64,000 nt of DNA from Klebsiella phage NU-KP11: sequence record OR644643.1, one strand, 5' to 3'. Positions 3,012 through 56,716 of the stretch are shown here, in pieces. The notes under the pieces are model-generated. The model saw only the letters and a program-made list of their open reading frames with translations. It was not told the DNA's origin and searched no databases. How positions within the stretch are numbered: position 1 is the stretch's first letter; the number at the start of each line of letters is the position of its first letter. The position numbers and the translations under genes are program-made.

Positions 3012-3042
3012 AAGCCCTCAACCGAAGTCAAGGGCTTTTTGA

Positions 3043-5960: not shown

Positions 5961-6812
5961 TTACATTAAGTCATCCAGTGTTTCAGGGTATGTATTTACG
6001 TCGCGTTTCTGATAGTTGCACACGTAGACTTCTTGCGTTTTATTTTGTTCGTAAGAATCAGTATGCTGGCCTAACAGATACTTTTTATCGAGGTTATGCA
6101 CATTATATTTTTGCATCCACTCGATCAGGATATCATTTTGCTTTCCTGCATGATGTGTAACGTTTGATAAACCAAACTTGATACCATCAGAGTTTAAATT
6201 ATCGAGAAAATCATATAATTCATGCTCTCGTTCTTCGTTCCAGAATTTGTTATAAACTGCATCAGTGATCAGGTACGGCGGATCGCAGTACACAAAATCA
6301 TTCAAACAGATATCAAGATCCTTAAACGATGCGCTAGAGAATTCAATTCCCCGAACATTATTTTTGAAGTGTTCAAACCGTTTAACGGTAGAATCATTCA
6401 ATGTTCTACAACCAAAATTGGCGTTAAAATCGCCTTTATCGTTGGTTCGATTAACATTACTAAACGAATGCAGGATTAGAACATAGAGCCATAGCGGATC
6501 CTTGTTCTTATTATATGCATCACGAAATGTGAGATACGCTTCTTTCTCGTTCTTACCCAGACCATACTGTTTAATCAATTCTCGCACCGGAGAGAGGTCA
6601 GGAAGCATTTGAAGGCGCTTATACATATCAATCAACGTCCGATCGTAATCGTTGCTTAGAACGGGTTTAGGGACGTTTAGTGACACACTCAACCCACCAC
6701 AAAAACAGTCGATGAATCGCATATAGCTGTTTCTGTCTGGAAATAATTTGAACAGTTCAGGAAGTAGCTTTTGCTTGTTTCCTGTGTATGGGATCACACC
6801 ATAATAACTCAT
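5961..6812 (-). CDS. dam: DNA adenine (N6) methyltransferase Dam
   Basis: YTGNKQKLLPEL...DCFCGGLSV (the SAM-binding motif) and VYCDPPY (the DPPY catalytic motif) are colinear with T4 Dam. Confidence 0.9.
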   Translation of the reverse strand: MSYYGVIPYTGNKQKLLPELFKLFPDRNSYMRFIDCFCGGLSVSLNVPKPVLSNDYDRTLIDMYKRLQMLPDLSPVRELIKQYGLGKNEKEAYLTFRDAYNKNKDPLWLYVLILHSFSNVNRTNDKGDFNANFGCRTLNDSTVKRFEHFKNNVRGIEFSSASFKDLDICLNDFVYCDPPYLITDAVYNKFWNEEREHELYDFLDNLNSDGIKFGLSNVTHHAGKQNDILIEWMQKYNVHNLDKKYLLGQHTDSYEQNKTQEVYVCNYQKRDVNTYPETLDDLM

Positions 6813-10954: not shown

Positions 10955-11974
10955 TTAAAATTCATGGTTCAGGATTTTGCCCCATACAGGGCGAATCATG
11001 TTTTGGGCTTCGGTTACAAACAGCTTTTTAGCCATTGCTGGGTCTTCGAACTGTTCGAGGAAAGGCCCGTGATTACGGCTGATTTCTTCGATAGCATCCT
11101 GAACAGTTAAGCCCATAATGCGACCGAAATCTTTAGCAGTGATCGAAGCCAGATCCAGTTTCGAAAGAACGTTTTTCACACGGTTCTCTGTAAGGTAACA
11201 AACAAACTCATCGAGTTGGTTTTTGTCTTTTTCTGACAGTGAAACCGGAGCATTAAAGCGGGTTGCTTTCTTCGCTTTCTTCTCAGTGAATTTGGTTGTT
11301 TTGCATTTGATTGCAACGCGTTCACCGTTTGGCATAAAAGCAGGTGAAACAGGTTTCATTACAAAACCTTCTGCAATGTTGCCCTCTTCAACGTCCATGA
11401 TAGGATATACGAATTCACCATATACTGTGTTATCGCTACCAATGCCGCTATTTGCTTTATTCACAACAGATTCAAACGTGATCGGCAGTTCTTTGATCTC
11501 TTCAAAAGTACCGTATCCCAACAGCGGGGCCATTTTCAGGCCATGAGATCGAGAGATAAGCGAGCACAGGTTATCCGGAAGGAATTCACCATTTACACGG
11601 ATATCGAATACGTAGAAATCTTTTTCGCCGTAATCAACATCTTTCTGTACACCGCGCCCCGCAAATTCACCGTAGACTTGAATAACCAAATCATCATAAG
11701 TTCCGGTCTTTTTGAGGGTTTCCCACATCTTACGGATCCCTGGTGAATACTTTGCAACTACTGCTGAACAGCCATAAAAATCTTCGGCTGGCTTCACAAC
11801 ATCAGTACGCTTTGCGGGGGTAACGGTAACGCCGTCATCGGTGATAAAACTAAAGTTAGCACCGTGGATCTTTTCACGCGCAACCCACACACCGCCAGTA
11901 AGCCCGTTCATAATTACACCATTGATGAACTTACCTTCATAATGGTTAGTCAGAGAAGAATATTTCTTAAACAT
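10955..11974 (-). CDS. rnlB: RNA ligase 2 (RnlB)
   Basis: MFKKYSSL.NHY...LTGGVWVAREKIHGANFS (with the KxHG adenylation lysine), then ...FYVFDI... and ...RVAIKCK..KF.EKK. These are colinear with T4 Rnl2 (gp24.1). Confidence 0.9.
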   Translation of the reverse strand: MFKKYSSLTNHYEGKFINGVIMNGLTGGVWVAREKIHGANFSFITDDGVTVTPAKRTDVVKPAEDFYGCSAVVAKYSPGIRKMWETLKKTGTYDDLVIQVYGEFAGRGVQKDVDYGEKDFYVFDIRVNGEFLPDNLCSLISRSHGLKMAPLLGYGTFEEIKELPITFESVVNKANSGIGSDNTVYGEFVYPIMDVEEGNIAEGFVMKPVSPAFMPNGERVAIKCKTTKFTEKKAKKATRFNAPVSLSEKDKNQLDEFVCYLTENRVKNVLSKLDLASITAKDFGRIMGLTVQDAIEEISRNHGPFLEQFEDPAMAKKLFVTEAQNMIRPVWGKILNHEF

Positions 11975-19651: not shown

Positions 19652-21151
19652 GTGGATATCGAAGTCAAATTCCTTAACACTAGTCATGTGCAGATTCAGG
19701 CAGAGGCTAACATAGTCTATGAATTGCGCGACTATTTCAGCTTCCAGCCGCCAGGTTATCAGTACCAGGCAAAATACAAATATGGTGGATGGAACGGCTA
19801 CATATACTTGATGGACTATAACGGGAAACTGCCCTACGGTTTAGCCTATCTTGTAACAAAATTCGCGGAGTCTCGCGGGTATTCTATCTGGATGGATCCT
19901 AAGATCCACGAAACAGAAGAAATTACCCAGCCAGATTTTGACAAGTGGTTAGAAGAACACCCAGTATACGACGGAAACAAGCAGATTGATCCGTATTGGT
20001 ATCAAAAACAATCGGTGTTCCATGCGATTAAAAACCGCCGTGCTGTGCTTAACCTCCCAACGTCAGCGGGTAAATCTCTTATTCAGGGGTTGATATCTCG
20101 TTGGTGTCTGGAAAATTACACAGGCAAAGTACTAATCATTGTCCCAACAACCGCCCTTGTTGATCAGATGATCGGTGATATTGTCAACTATCGCCTTTTA
20201 CCTCGCGAGGCAATGCTTGGAATACGTTCAGGAACTGCTAAAAACAGTAATGCATTGATCTACGTGTCTACGTGGCAATCGGCTGTTAAAATGCCTCCTG
20301 AGTGGTTTCAGCAGTTCATGTGTTTGATGGTGGATGAATGCCACAAATCAACCGGACAAAGCATACAGAAGATCATCAACACAATGGATCAGTGTATTTT
20401 CAAGTTTGGCCTTTCTGGTTCTCTGAAAGAAGGCAAAGCAAACATGATGCAATACATTGGCGCTTTTGGTCAAATCTTCAAGCCAGTTGATACAAATCGG
20501 TTGATGCAGGAAGGTCAAGTTACCAACCTTCGAATTAATACCATCTTCATGAGATATAAAGAGGATGAGATTAAGAAAATGAAGGGGGCAGATTACCAAA
20601 GCGAAATCAAGTATATAACATCGCATACCAGGCGTAACGCATGGATCTGTAAGCTGGCGTTGAAACTGGCAAGGGAAAAAGATGAAAACGTGTTTGTGAT
20701 GTTCAATCAGATCAAACATGGTAAATGGCTGTATGAGCAACTCAAAAAGGTATATGACAACGTTGTATACATTTCTGGGGAAACGGGGATTGATGAGCGA
20801 AACGAAATGAAACGGATCGCAGAATCAACGAAGGGGCTGATCGTAATCGGTTCTATTGGTGTACTGAGTACAGGTATTTCTGTTAAGAACCTGCATCACA
20901 TCATCTTCGGACATCCTTGCAAATCTGCTGTTATAGTCAAACAGTCAATTGGGCGCGTACTGCGTAAACATGATTCTAAATCTCTTGCTACTGTTTGGGA
21001 TTTGGTTGATAACTTAGCAACGCTGGCAAAGTCCAAAAATGCTAAAAATAAATATTCATACAAAAACTATGGTATGAAACACGCAATCGAACGAGTACGC
21101 ATTTACAATGAAGAAAAGTTTGACTACGTGATCAAACAAATCGAAATTTAG
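19652..21151 (+). CDS. uvsW: UvsW DNA/RNA helicase (SF2)
   Basis: MDIEVKF.. aligns with T4 UvsW MDIKVHF... Motifs LNLPTSAGKS (Walker A), MVDECHK (DExH), and SIGRVLRKH are present. The start codon is GTG, with AGGA 9 nt upstream. A + strand late promoter TATAAATA lies at about 19614-19621. Confidence 0.9.
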   Translation: MDIEVKFLNTSHVQIQAEANIVYELRDYFSFQPPGYQYQAKYKYGGWNGYIYLMDYNGKLPYGLAYLVTKFAESRGYSIWMDPKIHETEEITQPDFDKWLEEHPVYDGNKQIDPYWYQKQSVFHAIKNRRAVLNLPTSAGKSLIQGLISRWCLENYTGKVLIIVPTTALVDQMIGDIVNYRLLPREAMLGIRSGTAKNSNALIYVSTWQSAVKMPPEWFQQFMCLMVDECHKSTGQSIQKIINTMDQCIFKFGLSGSLKEGKANMMQYIGAFGQIFKPVDTNRLMQEGQVTNLRINTIFMRYKEDEIKKMKGADYQSEIKYITSHTRRNAWICKLALKLAREKDENVFVMFNQIKHGKWLYEQLKKVYDNVVYISGETGIDERNEMKRIAESTKGLIVIGSIGVLSTGISVKNLHHIIFGHPCKSAVIVKQSIGRVLRKHDSKSLATVWDLVDNLATLAKSKNAKNKYSYKNYGMKHAIERVRIYNEEKFDYVIKQIEI

Positions 21152-21394: not shown

Positions 21395-21399
21395 AAAGA

Positions 21400-21426
21400 A
21401 GCCCCAACCGAAAGGAAGGGGCTTTT
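21400..21426. terminator. Bidirectional terminator AGCCCCAACCGAAAGGAAGGGGCTT (copy 1)
   Basis: A-run upstream and T-run downstream. An identical 25-nt core occurs at about 55369. Confidence 0.6.
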
Positions 21427-21828
21427 GTACATTTGCTTAACGCCAGTGCTGTACTATTCTGGCTATTCTATTCACATGCCCTTGATCGAAGGTATATTAT
21501 CAATCACCCCGCCGAAGGTAAACTCCATCGGACGGCGCAAAAGAGTACGCCTATCATCCAGCATTCTTTTATCAAGCCCCTTTCGGGTACACATGTATTT
21601 AGGACGCGATTTTGTTGCCTCCATCGCCCGTTTTGCCTCCGTAATGGGGAACTATGGGATCCAGGCAAAGAACCCCGTACAAGCCTCATTCATTACGCAT
21701 AATCGGTTTGTCATGCCTATGGCATAGTTTTACCTATCCTAAAAATCAGGATGTTCGTCAGATTCTAACAGATCCGGACGTTCATCACGGTCTGTAATTC
21801 CTTCACCATATCCAATCATAAGATTCTC

Positions 21829-22005
21829 CTACAGCAACATTTGAACTTCATTCAGATCATCGGATTCGTTGATCTCGCCGCTTTTTGTTTTTTCTGCGAT
21901 GTAGTCAGCACAGATAGTGCTACACACGCGCCCGGATTCAGTCACATAACCAGTAGAAGGAACCGGACACTTGCACACTACACATTTTTCATTTTCAGTA
22001 GACAT
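21829..22005 (-). CDS. Small Cys-rich (zinc-ribbon-like) protein of about 58 aa. It corresponds positionally to T4 uvsY.-1. It is not in the ORF track.
   Basis: Reverse translation gives MSTENEKCVVCKCPVPSTGYVTESGRVCSTICADYIAEKTKSGEINESDDLNEVQMLL. Its ATG overlaps the uvsY stop (TAATG). Confidence 0.4.
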   Translation of the reverse strand: MSTENEKCVVCKCPVPSTGYVTESGRVCSTICADYIAEKTKSGEINESDDLNEVQMLL

Positions 22006-22424
22006 TATGCACCACTTTCTAATTTACGGATCTCCAACATGTTTTTGATAGAGTATCCTTTGTTTTTGACGATATCCAGTGCTTTACTGGTGAAATCTAC
22101 CACCATGTCATAATACTGGATCAGTTTGTTGGTTTCTACAATCTTCGGATCCCCAGCGATCGCGATTTTGATTTCAGTAGTCCCAGTATACACCACTTCG
22201 CACATTTCTTTGTCATGTCTTCCGGTGTAGTACAACATACGATCCTTCACATCAGCTTCTTTTTTAGCATGAAGTTGGATCAGTTTTTTCTTCGCGTTTG
22301 AATGGTAACGAAGCCATTTAGCCCAAATCTTAGGGATATCCGCTGATTCTGATTGCAACTTGAGGGGATCTATCAGCATATCCTTTTCAAGTTCATTTTG
22401 CAGATCTTCTAATTTCAAACTCAT
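22005..22424 (-). CDS. uvsY: UvsY recombination mediator protein
   Basis: MSLKLEDLQNELEKD... is colinear with T4 UvsY (MRLEDLQEELKKD...). At 139 aa it is close to T4's 137 aa. Confidence 0.9.
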   Translation of the reverse strand: MSLKLEDLQNELEKDMLIDPLKLQSESADIPKIWAKWLRYHSNAKKKLIQLHAKKEADVKDRMLYYTGRHDKEMCEVVYTGTTEIKIAIAGDPKIVETNKLIQYYDMVVDFTSKALDIVKNKGYSIKNMLEIRKLESGA

Positions 22425-22725
22425 AACATACTCACCAATTTACCCAGTTGATCTATAATATACTATATTAATTTGTAGTCAAATTTAAATTGATCTAATA
22501 TAATATATTATTAAAAGAATAATTATACATGATCTAATTTATAAAATCAAATTTATTTTTACTTGATTTCAAAAATTATTTGATCTATAATAATTATAAT
22601 TAATAAATTTTATCATAAATCATTTATAAATTCAAGATCTAATTTAATATTAATTATAATTATTAAAAGATGGAGTAAGTTTCCCTACTCCACCTATTGA
22701 ATATTATCCCCGTTGGGTTATACTA
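22425..22725. promoter_or_regulatory. AT-rich (about 85% AT) intergenic island with 5 clustered GATC sites and sigma70-like promoters on both strands. It is a candidate oriF-like origin/regulatory region upstream of uvsY.
   Basis: GATC at about 22450, 22492, 22531, 22582 and 22636. Plus strand: TTGATT, 17 nt, TATAAT at about 22563-22591. Minus strand: TTGACT, 16 nt, TATTAT at about 22455-22482, directed at uvsY. Confidence 0.5.
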
Positions 22726-24015
22726 TCAACCCAGTTTAGGAAGTTTGATACCCACAATCTGACTCATCTTAGATTTACCTGAGAGGTTTACCCAGTCATC
22801 ACCTTTCACAAGTCTTTCGTTTGCAGCAGTGGTATATGGGTTAACCGATAAACCGTAGCGCATCAGAATAGCAACTTTAGGCTGTAAGGATTGAGGATCA
22901 ACAGAAATCTTGATCGAACCTGCCTGATCAGCTTCTGTGTATGGCGTATAGAACAGAGAGCCAACATGATCCATTTCACCCAGATCATACTTGCAACCAG
23001 TCAGCAGGTAATCAAACGGTGTATTGGTGTCAGTATAGACATAATAACCGTTTTTAAGTCGCCCTGTCGCTAACGGGTGGGTTTCATCGGTTTCATGCAT
23101 CCAACCAGACGCAGCCAGAACGCCTACAACGCGAGAAGATGCCAGGACATAGGTAGCTTCAAATGAAGTCGTTCTATTCATTTCCTGCCCCATTTCACAC
23201 ACTAATTGATACAGGAAACGACCTAAAGCCGGAGCATCCTTTGCAGTGTATGCGGTTGTAGCATCGAAAATGCCGTTTGTGATTACACCATCAACGTTGT
23301 AACGATTTGATACGTTGATCAGAGTCTGAATGATATCTTTGTTTACTTCTTCACTGGCAACAGTACCCAAAACATCTTCAATCACATTTTCTGCGTTGAA
23401 TTGGTTTGCTTCCAGATCCTGCATAAGTTCCACGGTCATTTCAGTTTTGAATTTGCGGGAACGAACGTTGATATTCCAACGATCCATTTCGAAAGAAGTT
23501 GTACTAATATCTTCGCTGGTTTCATACTGACTTGTTGGCGCGGCTTCGCTTGCCATGCGTAATTTATTGCTGAATAATGCGACCATAATCGCTTCATCAA
23601 TATCAGCACCTGCGAGAGTTACGCTATCAGTTACTTCGTATACAACATCACTTGTCGGGTGTTTGAAAACTTGGCCTTTGGTGTAGGCAGTACCAACCGT
23701 ACCATTTGAAATATTATCGCGGCTTGCATACTTACCGGAATAGGTAGCAGCGCTGGAAAACGTCATATCGCCTTTAGGGTTACGATAACGCACACCGAAC
23801 AGAGTTGCGGTAGGTAAATTAGTTTCCTGAATCGCTACAAGTTCACCGTAGATCAGGTTGTTTACCGCACGGGTAAGAGATACCAGATCCGGACGGGTAT
23901 TAGCTACGTTAATTGTTTCTGTTCCGGTTGCCTCATCAAGAACCTTTTTAGACAGGCCAGGCGGTAGCTGTGACTGACGCACCAGCTTGTTAATTGTGTA
24001 AAATTTTTCACTCAT
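22726..24015 (-). CDS. 24: Capsid vertex protein gp24
   Basis: RPDLVSLTRAVNNLIYGELVAIQETNLP... and the C-terminal VDPQSLQPKVAILMRYGLSVNPYT are colinear with T4 gp24. The track start at 24039 is TTG. The ATG at 24015 (MSEKFYT...) has an AGGAA RBS and gives about 429 aa. Confidence 0.9.
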   Translation of the reverse strand: MSEKFYTINKLVRQSQLPPGLSKKVLDEATGTETINVANTRPDLVSLTRAVNNLIYGELVAIQETNLPTATLFGVRYRNPKGDMTFSSAATYSGKYASRDNISNGTVGTAYTKGQVFKHPTSDVVYEVTDSVTLAGADIDEAIMVALFSNKLRMASEAAPTSQYETSEDISTTSFEMDRWNINVRSRKFKTEMTVELMQDLEANQFNAENVIEDVLGTVASEEVNKDIIQTLINVSNRYNVDGVITNGIFDATTAYTAKDAPALGRFLYQLVCEMGQEMNRTTSFEATYVLASSRVVGVLAASGWMHETDETHPLATGRLKNGYYVYTDTNTPFDYLLTGCKYDLGEMDHVGSLFYTPYTEADQAGSIKISVDPQSLQPKVAILMRYGLSVNPYTTAANERLVKGDDWVNLSGKSKMSQIVGIKLPKLG

Positions 24016-24048
24016 TTTATGTTCCTGCGTTATTGACAAACTTTTCTT

Positions 24049-55401: not shown

Positions 55402-56346
55402 TTACTTAGGATCGTAATGTCCGGTTTTAATTCCGGAAACAATATGTGCTACATCAAACGCTTTACCATGATCAGAACCCGCTTTACTGTAGATATGACC
55501 AAATGTAAATTTCTGGTCGTCTGATGTACGGAATACGCCGATCGGTTCTGAATCTTCGCCTTTTTCGTAGTATTCAACACTAACGACGGTTTCATATTCG
55601 AATGATTCAGTCTTTTCGTTGTAAAATTTCTTTTTTTCTACTTCCACGTAAACATCAAACTTTTTCTTTAGTGCAGCAACCAATTTTTTAACATTAGGTG
55701 AGGACTTCCCCACAACAGCTTCATTGATTTCCTCCGATTCAGCCAGAACCAGTTTAGAAACCATATCGCCTTTATATTCCTGGGTGAATTTTTTACCAGA
55801 TACCAGGCGAGGTTTGCCGGAAGCATCGACTACGGTAAACACTGCATATTCACCGCTTGCTTTAGTTTTAGAACGCCCAGTGTACAGAAGACGCATATCG
55901 TTGCTTGGGAGTTTGTAAACTTTACCTTTCACCAGAGCTTCATCCATAGGGATCTCGATTTCGAAATCTTCTGCTAACTGGTTATATAGATCCAGATTTT
56001 CTTCCGCCTCTTCATACAGAGTAGCAGCTTTGAATTTTTCTGGTTTGTCGAAATCCATATCATTATCCGGATTACCACTGTAGAAAGAAACAGTACCTTT
56101 AGCCCAATCGACATAAGCCGCTTGAACTTTACCAGTAGTCATACCTTTCAAACGTACAATGTTTTTACCGAAGTATGCCAGATCGTGAGAATCCGGTGCT
56201 AAAACTTCGAAATCAGAACCATGTTTGAAGTGAAGAAAACCGATTGAATGTTTATCGGAAGTTTTAGCGCGTTGACCACGTGCTACGGTACGAGCGAGGG
56301 TTTTACCTTCGGTCAGAAATTCTTTGAATTTTTTCAAGTGAGTCAT
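55402..56346 (-). CDS. Hypothetical protein (314-325 aa) on the opposite strand. It is a moron-like insertion between gp2 and gp3.
   Basis: Long ORF. The ATG at 56346 has an AGGAAAA RBS, and the track's upstream ATG is at 56379. It is flanked by an AT-rich promoter island and a bidirectional terminator. Confidence 0.5.
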   Translation of the reverse strand: MTHLKKFKEFLTEGKTLARTVARGQRAKTSDKHSIGFLHFKHGSDFEVLAPDSHDLAYFGKNIVRLKGMTTGKVQAAYVDWAKGTVSFYSGNPDNDMDFDKPEKFKAATLYEEAEENLDLYNQLAEDFEIEIPMDEALVKGKVYKLPSNDMRLLYTGRSKTKASGEYAVFTVVDASGKPRLVSGKKFTQEYKGDMVSKLVLAESEEINEAVVGKSSPNVKKLVAALKKKFDVYVEVEKKKFYNEKTESFEYETVVSVEYYEKGEDSEPIGVFRTSDDQKFTFGHIYSKAGSDHGKAFDVAHIVSGIKTGHYDPK

Positions 56347-56379
56347 TTTGTTTTTTCCTGATTTCCAATATGGGAACAT

Positions 56380-56716
56380 AGTACCAGTATTTAGTGACGG
56401 GGTAAAGGAAAAGTTTTCAGAAAAAGCATAAAATTTATTAGATCTAAGTATTGATCTTCATAAAAATTTATGATAAAATAAAATATTAATATATTATAGA
56501 TCATAAAATTTATGAATTCAAGATCAGATCTAAAAATTTTTGATAAATTATTTATTAAATTTTACTTGATCTTGTTAGATCTTTTTGATAAAATTTTAAT
56601 TAATAATTATTATAGATCAAAGATTTTAAAAGGTCAAGCATTTTCTTCAAATTTTTATATTACCCCGTCAGGCCGCTTTGATCCCGTTCCCCGCTAAATA
56701 GAGGAAAGGAGATCCT
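56380..56716. promoter_or_regulatory. AT-rich intergenic island between divergent genes. It has 8 GATC sites, three copies of a near-palindromic 14-mer (cATAAAATTTATgA), and sigma70-like promoters toward gp3.
   Basis: GATC at about 56441, 56453, 56509, 56522, 56527, 56568, 56578 and 56615. The 14-mer occurs at about 56427, 56459 and 56502. Two TTGATC, 17 nt, TAAAAT arrangements are present. Confidence 0.5.

Follow-up and report, generated by a model that had tools for sequence, protein, structure and literature searches.

Why should some 300 bp of extremely AT-rich DNA, lodged between two genes of Klebsiella phage NU-KP11, hold five copies of the tetranucleotide GATC? The element in question, which we call island C, lies in a 64,000-nucleotide stretch of the phage genome (sequence record OR644643.1; hereafter, the window), where it fills the entire gap between two minus-strand genes, the recombination mediator gene uvsY and the late gene 24, and abuts the uvsY start codon. 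The original prediction for this locus, made from the letters alone, proposed an origin of replication resembling oriF of phage T4 that might respond to a Dam methylase encoded by the phage itself. We find that island C is real, specific and conserved, that it is the most easily melted place in the genome, and that it is one member of a three-copy family. It carries predicted promoters on both strands. From its layout and position we infer that it is the early control region of uvsY, and it probably doubles as an origin primed by transcription, much like T4 oriF, oriG and oriE; control by Dam methylation is plausible.

The source phage is a Slopekvirus, a KP15-like, T4-type Klebsiella myovirus with a genome of 174 kb. 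The 2.3 kb surrounding island C are 99.7% identical to Klebsiella phage vB_KpnM_05F (05F; LR746310.1) and 97–99% identical to ~110 further slopekviruses. Our genome-wide figures refer to a composite genome consisting of positions 1–107.8 kb of LR746310.1 and the reverse complement of the window; the final 2.8 kb of LR746310.1 was examined separately for AT-rich islands.

GATC excess in the least stable DNA of the genome

Island C is 81.7% AT, and a 231-bp core (22440–22670) that is 87.9% AT contains all five GATC sites, in keeping with the AT-rich, five-site stretch originally described. From the composition of the island, 0.39 sites would be expected under a mononucleotide model, 0.57 under an order-1 Markov model and 1.05 under an order-2 Markov model trained on island C itself; the fraction of simulated sequences with five or more sites was at most 0.004. 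The claim of an excess many-fold over compositional expectation thus held. A genome-wide GATC count had been proposed in advance as a check, and it places the island above both the genome rate and its local expectation: raw density is 16.6 per kb, ~2.4 times the 6.6–7.0 per kb found genome-wide. The genome is not poor in GATC, with 1,129 sites (6.6 per kb) amounting to 1.77 times the mononucleotide and 0.98 times the trinucleotide-based expectation. Since 6% of 300-bp intervals in the 64 kb hold at least five GATC, the raw count in island C is unremarkable and becomes exceptional only given an AT content of 82–88%.

When intervals were ranked by GATC excess over local composition, 22349–22648, which takes in island C and two GATC within uvsY, came third among 6,860 across the genome. 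Ranks one and two were occupied by two sister islands, described below as A and B (Poisson p for the top three, 6e-10, 4e-9 and 3e-7), and in simulations the excess reached p ≤ 0.004 in each of the three. It is confined to this tetramer: across the three islands GATC occurs 24 times, versus 5 for the runner-up among the 24 tetramers in which each base appears once, most of which occur 0–2 times. GATC accounts for a quarter of all G and C in islands A and B and for the same share of plus-strand C in island C, versus 3% genome-wide. The sites also share flanks, as had been noted: WGATCTAATW is exact at three of the five island C sites and TGATCTATAAT occurs at the other two, with WGATCTAWW fitting all five.

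The fourth-ranked GATC outlier of the genome (31400–31770) is coding DNA of normal GC content inside a minus-strand structural gene, with 9 GATC in 300 bp (Poisson p = 3e-6 versus local composition). CTAG is strongly avoided in the composite genome, where its 78 sites are 0.12 of the number expected from mononucleotides and 0.35 of that expected from a Markov model, and AGCT is also scarce (0.43 and 0.56 of the same two expectations).

Nearest-neighbor free energies rank the islands as the three least stable duplex stretches genome-wide, at both 100 and 200 bp. Instability z scores over 200 bp range from 6.2 to 7.7 for the islands, and the next stretch reaches 3.7. The extreme belongs to island C (z = 6.3 over 100 bp and 7.7 over 200 bp).

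Three related islands and their counterparts in RB43-like phages

Island C had originally been treated as unique, which proved incorrect. AT-rich islands of ~300 bp (GC 0.19–0.24) number exactly three in the composite genome and the final 2.8 kb, and the remaining 57 segments with less than 30% GC hold 0–2 GATC each. Islands A, B and C are related: local alignments over ~200 bp gave z scores of 18.5 (A–B), 13 (A–C) and 6–8 (B–C) against composition-matched shuffles, with near-identical stretches of 40–60 bp between islands. Of the five GATC sites in island C, just one is matched by a GATC when the island is aligned with A or with B. Because GATC positions are mostly non-homologous between the islands, yet density is high in all three, we argue that selection acts on density. 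An orientation-aware alignment of the 24 sites found no long common binding motif, yielding only W-GATC-T/A and the sub-motifs GATCTATAAT, GATCTAAT and GATCTGATC, and Tandem Repeats Finder detected no tandem array or iteron in islands C and B. Early-type genes lie downstream of every island on at least one side.

Transcription of the gene for a 325-aa protein (55402–56379, minus strand; phrog_7322, no Pfam match) is predicted to start from island B. In T4, gp3 and gp2 are direct neighbors; here this gene separates them.

Within the genus, island C is 95–100% identical in 110 of 113 matching deposited genomes. Among nine aligned isolates GATC 1 is invariant and sites 2–5 are each lost in one or two, and island B keeps all its GATC in five of five isolates, including RCIP0020 and K14-2; with 95–100% identity across the genus, such conservation counts carry little statistical power. 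In Klebsiella phage VAC13, island B has gained two GATC through a 28-bp tandem duplication, AGATCATAAAATTTATGAATTCAAGATC, that is bounded by GATC.

The islands also coincide with the ends of deposited sequences. Among the matches listed, the assemblies PSKm2DI, P-KP2, phiKp_1, phiKp_9, phiKp_15, phiKp_19 and KLB10 start or end inside island C or at its edge (22498–22587), phiKp_23 matches island C over 28 nt only, and phiKp_5 and phiKp_18 start or end in island B (56490–56578). Island C is covered only partly in ~10% of matching records. These breaks likely stem from low read coverage of ~90% AT DNA or from the repeats shared between islands. The islands thus appear to break many deposited assemblies, and annotators should expect breaks there.

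The RB43-like phages (Pseudotevenvirus) have the gene order of slopekviruses, and their gap between gene 24 and uvsY (240–270 bp, 31% GC, 2 GATC) is unrelated to island C in sequence. It contains a module of its own: ~180 bp at 31–33% GC, with inverted arms of ~35 bp rich in GAGCGAAGCGA and an AT-rich center with a conserved TATATAGAGAAAA. The arms include GCGAAGC, a very stable DNA mini-hairpin motif. Outward-facing sigma70-like promoters flank the module, several with GATC in the spacer. Of the 25 genomes listed (65 records matched), 24 carry exactly three copies, the exception being Pantoea phage Phynn, the weakest match, with one. In RB43 they occupy rnh/55, gp3/ORF200 and 24/uvsY and so share all three gaps with the slopekvirus islands, and the 325-aa gene beside island B is retained beside an RB43-type module as ORF200w. 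The module is unannotated in every record listed, and our literature search found no published description of it or of the three islands.

Copies resemble one another within each genus, but when slopekvirus islands are set against RB43-type modules no similarity is detectable (z ≤ 2.7). A three-copy element that is fixed in number and place while its sequence is free to change suggests a shared cis-acting function that co-evolves with its reader. Scans of IMG/VR and metagenomes with UvsY added only a few lineages, all of them with RB43-type modules, and in two of these the module is placed upstream of uvsY. Four of four lineages retain a promoter-like unit that is directed antisense into gene 24 and has no gene to serve, and in three of the four GATC lies in or beside the spacer of both flanking promoters.

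Candidate promoters and the comparison with known origins

Sigma70-like promoter matches number 11 in island C, counting both strands, versus 4.1 ± 1.5 in shuffled sequences, which agrees with the promoters originally noted on both strands. Three predicted promoters (P1–P3, Table 1) point toward uvsY. Another, on the plus strand, faces the 3′ end of late gene 24 in antisense and has no open reading frame (ORF) downstream to express. Just beyond it begins an inverted repeat made of A and T only, which is only mildly unlikely in two-letter DNA. The stem-loop at the far end of the island is annotated as a terminator in relatives, is invariant in nine of nine isolates, and likely terminates gene 24.

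Table 1. Island C, its predicted elements, its sister islands and genes of interest; positions refer to the window
Feature	Position	Strand	Remarks
Island C	22425–22725		AT-rich GATC-dense gap uvsY/gene 24; 81.7% AT, 5 GATC
uvsY, recombination mediator	22005–22424	−	phrog_231, E = 1e-45; predicted to be served by P1–P3
gene 24, late, capsid vertex protein	22726–24039	−	ends at island C; head-on to plus-strand promoter
UvsW helicase	19652–21151	+	annotated within the window
Phage Dam, D12-class N6-adenine methyltransferase	5961–6812	−	close T4 Dam homologue; presumed GATC writer
P1, sigma70-like, toward uvsY	22455–22482	−	TTGACT-16-TATTAT, 10/12 matches; ~24 nt upstream of uvsY AUG
P2, sigma70-like, toward uvsY	22522–22550	−	TTGATT-17-TATAAT, TG before −10 hexamer; 10/12
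P3, sigma70-like, toward uvsY	22607–22635	−	TTGAAT-17-TAAAAT, extended −10 TG; 9/12
Plus-strand promoter, sigma70-like, away from uvsY	22563–22591	+	TTGATT-17-TATAAT, 10/12
Weaker promoter-like unit	22476–22504	+	TAGTCA-17-TATAAT; 71% direct-repeat partner of 22554–22594 unit
GATC 1	22450–22453		between P1 −10 hexamer and predicted P1 start (discriminator)
GATC 2	22492–22495		9 nt upstream of P1 −35; 3 nt upstream of plus-strand TATAAT
GATC 3	22531–22534		3 nt upstream of P2 −10 hexamer (GATCATGTATAAT on minus strand)
GATC 4	22582–22585		abuts −10 hexamer of plus-strand promoter (GATCTATAAT)
GATC 5	22636–22639		abuts P3 −35 hexamer (GATCTTGAAT on minus strand)
A/T-only perfect 18-nt inverted repeat	22588–22665		arms 22588–22605 and 22648–22665, 42 nt apart
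Stem-loop	22672–22691	−	GGAGTA-N8-TACTCC then CTTTT, read from sequence
Island A			between rnh and gene 55; 9 GATC
Island B	56380–56716		between 325-aa hypothetical gene (−) and gp3 (+); 10 GATC; interleaved promoters on both strands

GATC is built into a promoter family of the islands. The unit TTGAyy-N13-GATC-TATAAT has one occurrence in island A, two in B and one in C, where the plus-strand promoter belongs to it, and this GATC-TATAAT family is confined to the islands. Genome-wide, 9 of 13 GATC-bearing promoter-like matches fall inside the islands, which make up 0.5% of genome length. Ordinary early promoters form a separate, GATC-free family, TTGACTtcggtcaggggcttttgcTATATT, with at least seven copies.

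The TTGACTtcggtcaggggcttttgcTATATT family combines a terminator-like GC hairpin with a sigma70 promoter, the hairpin lying within the promoter spacer. Its copies lie in early regions, at 11396, 24412, 68824, 79430, 89122 and 95926 in 05F and at 168768 in the composite genome (approximately window position 3031). In layout they are similar to the promoter-early-stem-loop cassettes known from RB49 and phi1.

The gene proposed to write methylation at these sites is present as predicted. The ORF at 5961–6812 matches PF02086 (E = 8e-35) and the T4 Dam structure 1YFJ (E = 3e-85), full length, and from these matches we infer specificity for GATC. Two kinds of Dam-linked system invite comparison. IS10 pIN and dnaA P2 are Dam-sensitive promoters, and as in them GATC lies within or against −35 or −10 elements in the islands (GATCTATAAT, GATCATGTATAAT, GATCTTGAAT and TTGATC, the last a predicted −35 hexamer in islands A and B); unlike them, each island holds many GATC, spread over promoters that interleave on the two strands. 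E. coli oriC and P1 oriR are origins with Dam/SeqA-controlled GATC clusters. Here too a cluster far above expectation lies in an AT-rich unwinding region and a cognate Dam is encoded, and many island sites read GATCT followed by A or T, as at the start of the oriC 13-mer. The analogy with oriC, part of the original prediction, nonetheless breaks down in its components, as a motif scan found no DnaA box (TTWTNCACA) and no match to the 13-mer consensus GATCTNTTNTTTT, and iterons are likewise lacking. Neither DnaA nor a Rep protein takes part in initiation in T4-type phages. In island C the scan was also negative for the IHF consensus, the P1 pac hexamer, the MotA box and the T4 late promoter TATAAATA. 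The exact TATAAATA octamer occurs only 10 times in the composite genome, counting both strands, so late promoters here may use a variant.

Replication origins have, to our knowledge, been mapped in T4 itself only, and T4 offers the closest positional parallel. Its record places rep_origin oriF at 115321, in the start and promoter region of uvsY, with the note that the primer RNA is the gene uvsY transcript. Island C lies immediately upstream of uvsY and overlaps the uvsY promoter, so the location claimed in the original prediction is confirmed. Minimal T4 oriF and oriG are made up of a middle-mode promoter together with an A+T-rich unwinding element (PMC3016281). The same succession can be read in island C, where the leaders downstream of P2, P3 and the plus-strand promoter are ~90% AT. 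A transcript antisense to a late gene, as at oriE and oriG, is also possible there. The R-loop of a T4 origin needs no specific sequence, its unwinding element can be replaced by heterologous ones, and T4 UvsW unwinds such origin R-loops (PMC3016281). As in T4, the genes for RNase H, UvsW, gp41/59/61, gp43/45/44-62 and gp32 are present in the slopekvirus, together with dda (LR746310.1 annotation; UvsW in the window).

The other two islands fit T4 more loosely. Islands A, B and C adjoin rnh, gp3 and uvsY, the neighbors of oriG, oriE and oriF, and the positional match is exact for uvsY only. In T4, oriG lies 2.1 kb inside gene 34, beside rnh, and oriE lies inside gene 5, ~3.4 kb from gp3, the primer being antisense to a late gene in both cases. 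T4 origins share no common sequence motif, and the mechanism of those beyond oriF and oriG is still open (PMC3016281); the slopekvirus, by contrast, has three related copies. T4 oriE, oriF and oriG lie near transcriptional divergence points and skew shifts (PMC3016281). In the slopekvirus, cumulative GC skew has two minima, at ~44 and ~117 kb, which coincide with islands A and B.

The main departure from T4 concerns the promoter. In T4 oriF, a gap of 76 bp holds a MotA box (ATGCTTCA) and TATAAT, the only GATC lies within uvsY, and the oriF and oriG promoters depend on MotA; those of island C are of the sigma70 type. No MotA box (TGCTTNA), nor even GCTT, was found in island C by the motif scan, and tblastn searches with T4 MotA and AsiA against the composite genome, which ends before the last 2.8 kb of the reference record, recovered no homologue (best E = 1.5). 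RB43 is likewise reported to lack MotA and AsiA (PMC1524935). Lacking a MotA box in a phage with no detected MotA or AsiA, island C is not a strict member of the oriF family. The oriF-like origin originally proposed therefore survives in part: its position, its combination of promoter and unwinding element and the set of replication genes agree with T4, whereas the MotA box, MotA and AsiA do not.

Competing explanations and neighboring features

The explanation we favor overall, and would hold to about as readily as doubt, is that the islands form a three-copy bidirectional early-promoter module that also serves as a transcription-primed origin, with GATC density read via Dam. By sequence, each island is a dense, bidirectional array of predicted early-type promoters for host sigma70, set in the most meltable DNA of the genome. 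At island C, three tandem promoters would drive uvsY, and at least one strong opposing promoter would send an antisense transcript into late gene 24. With an A+T-rich unwinding element downstream of the promoter, the transcript could remain in an RNA-DNA hybrid from which the leading strand is primed, the primer being either the uvsY transcript, as at oriF, or RNA antisense to a late gene, as at oriE and oriG. Plain sigma70 promoters would serve at the origin because the lineage is without MotA. More speculatively, the GATC sites, woven into or abutting −35 and −10 hexamers, would be kept dense by selection and read out through N6-adenine methylation by the phage Dam, in the fully methylated or hemimethylated state, possibly via host SeqA. 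Promoter and origin firing would then hinge on the replication status of the DNA.

Such a module, recognizable in three copies and held constant in number and position in two genera although its sequence has been wholly replaced, supplies concrete origin candidates in MotA-less T4-type phages. The specific GATC enrichment and the phage Dam, in turn, make the purpose of T-even-type Dam beyond restriction protection directly testable.

Several observations weigh against this explanation. The argument for an origin is one of anatomy and position only, and our literature search returned no origin, R-loop, transcript-start, transcriptome or methylome data for slopekviruses. The MotA-dependent promoter that defines T4 oriF and oriG is absent from island C, and T4 oriF is neither GATC-rich nor an AT island, its 76-bp gap contrasting with ~300 bp of ~82–88% AT DNA and five GATC. 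The correspondence with oriE and oriG holds at the level of neighborhood, as the T4 origins lie 2–3.5 kb inside genes 5 and 34. Both skew minima also fall where transcription diverges, at the two major such points of the genome, and island C shows no skew turn. AT-rich DNA, moreover, yields promoter-like hexamers easily.

Other points bear on the role given to GATC. RB43-type modules have only ~2 GATC each, so high density is not required by this class of module, and in the fourth lineage the uvsY promoter is without GATC. Within the genus, four of nine isolates lose one or two island C sites (RCIP0020 loses GATC 3 and 4, Snake_ER16 GATC 3, CPRSA GATC 2 and 5, and K14-2 GATC 5), and 5 of ~15 point substitutions in the island hit a GATC, where ~1 would be expected. 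Individual sites are thus dispensable, consistent with turnover. Miscalled bases at methylated sites could account for some of the apparent losses, which read GGTC or AATC in place of GATC.

The strongest alternative, possible but distinctly less probable than the explanation we favor, drops replication altogether. The islands would be hubs of bidirectional early promoters serving early genes inside late territory: uvsY at C, gp55 and the rnh-32 cluster at A, and gp3, gp1 and 57A at B. AT-richness would reflect UP-element or other promoter needs, GATC would be part of the promoter family or tune it, and antisense transcription would be anti-late RNA or a by-product. The promoter density and shared family within the islands and the early-type genes downstream of each agree with this, similarity between copies can stem from duplication of a promoter module, and the skew minima are then simply points of divergent transcription. 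Yet ordinary early promoters require neither 300 bp of ~80–90% AT DNA nor GATC, and the leftward promoter-like unit with nothing to express has been kept in four lineages. That two genera have a strict count of three modules in matching gaps, through complete sequence turnover, is likewise more than a promoter requires, and at T4 uvsY promoter and origin are one element.

A bolder version of the origin hypothesis strikes us as unlikely. The islands would be methylation-gated slopekvirus origins: on infecting DNA, which is fully methylated, the early and origin-primer promoters would fire, and newly replicated, hemimethylated copies would stay silenced, directly or via SeqA, until Dam re-methylates them. 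Were this so, methylation gating would replace the MotA/UvsW-based shut-off of T4 origins in a MotA-less lineage, a T-even-type phage Dam would have its first physiological role beyond restriction protection, and the unrelated RB43-type three-copy module would be the same kind of origin with a different reading factor.

Slightly less likely still is that promoters are secondary and the islands are GATC platforms, either for a reader such as SeqA (on hemimethylated DNA), Dam or a phage factor or as a Dam-regulated start site of cleavage or packaging like P1 pac. P1 pac and P1 oriR are precedents for Dam-controlled GATC clusters in phages, and this phage encodes a Dam. Density is maintained while positions turn over, as if the number of sites outweighed their place. 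Among the matches listed, eight records or matches end at island C and two in island B. The details fit poorly, however. Island C sites are 39–54 bp apart, wider than the spacing of up to ~31 bp that SeqA prefers, and there is neither a long common motif nor an iteron. TGATCR hexamers of the P1 pac type were found by the motif scan in island A only, with none in B or C. Unlike the P1 pac system with its pac-specific terminase, slopekviruses have T4-type terminase genes, and T4-type terminases package by the headful without a required pac site. The breaks are scattered over ~90 bp, for which poor coverage and shared repeats are the simpler cause.

That the gap has no specific function, being AT-drifted spacer around the gene 24 terminator and uvsY promoter with GATC as a duplicated low-complexity by-product, is very improbable: the islands are related copies, so that their GATC excesses are not fully independent, and some sites are dispensable in natural isolates, but all three copies are top genome outliers with GATC at non-homologous positions, GATC far outnumbers composition-matched tetramers (24 occurrences versus at most 5), island C is 95–100% identical in 110 of 113 matching genomes and island B conserves all its GATC, and a sister genus has a module at the same three gaps.

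We also considered an RNA gene in or around the island; a scan of the whole window against Rfam at gathering thresholds gave 0 matches, leaving this reading unsupported. A second ORF-free gap lies nearby, between uvsW.1 (plus strand) and uvsY.-2 (minus strand), at 21395–21828 (~430 bp, with a relatively high GC of 0.46–0.50). It has no Rfam match and folds without significant structure (z = −1.4 and −1.1). The annotation of one relative flags undetermined intron boundaries in the uvsW region, and the gap itself opens with a clear terminator hairpin.

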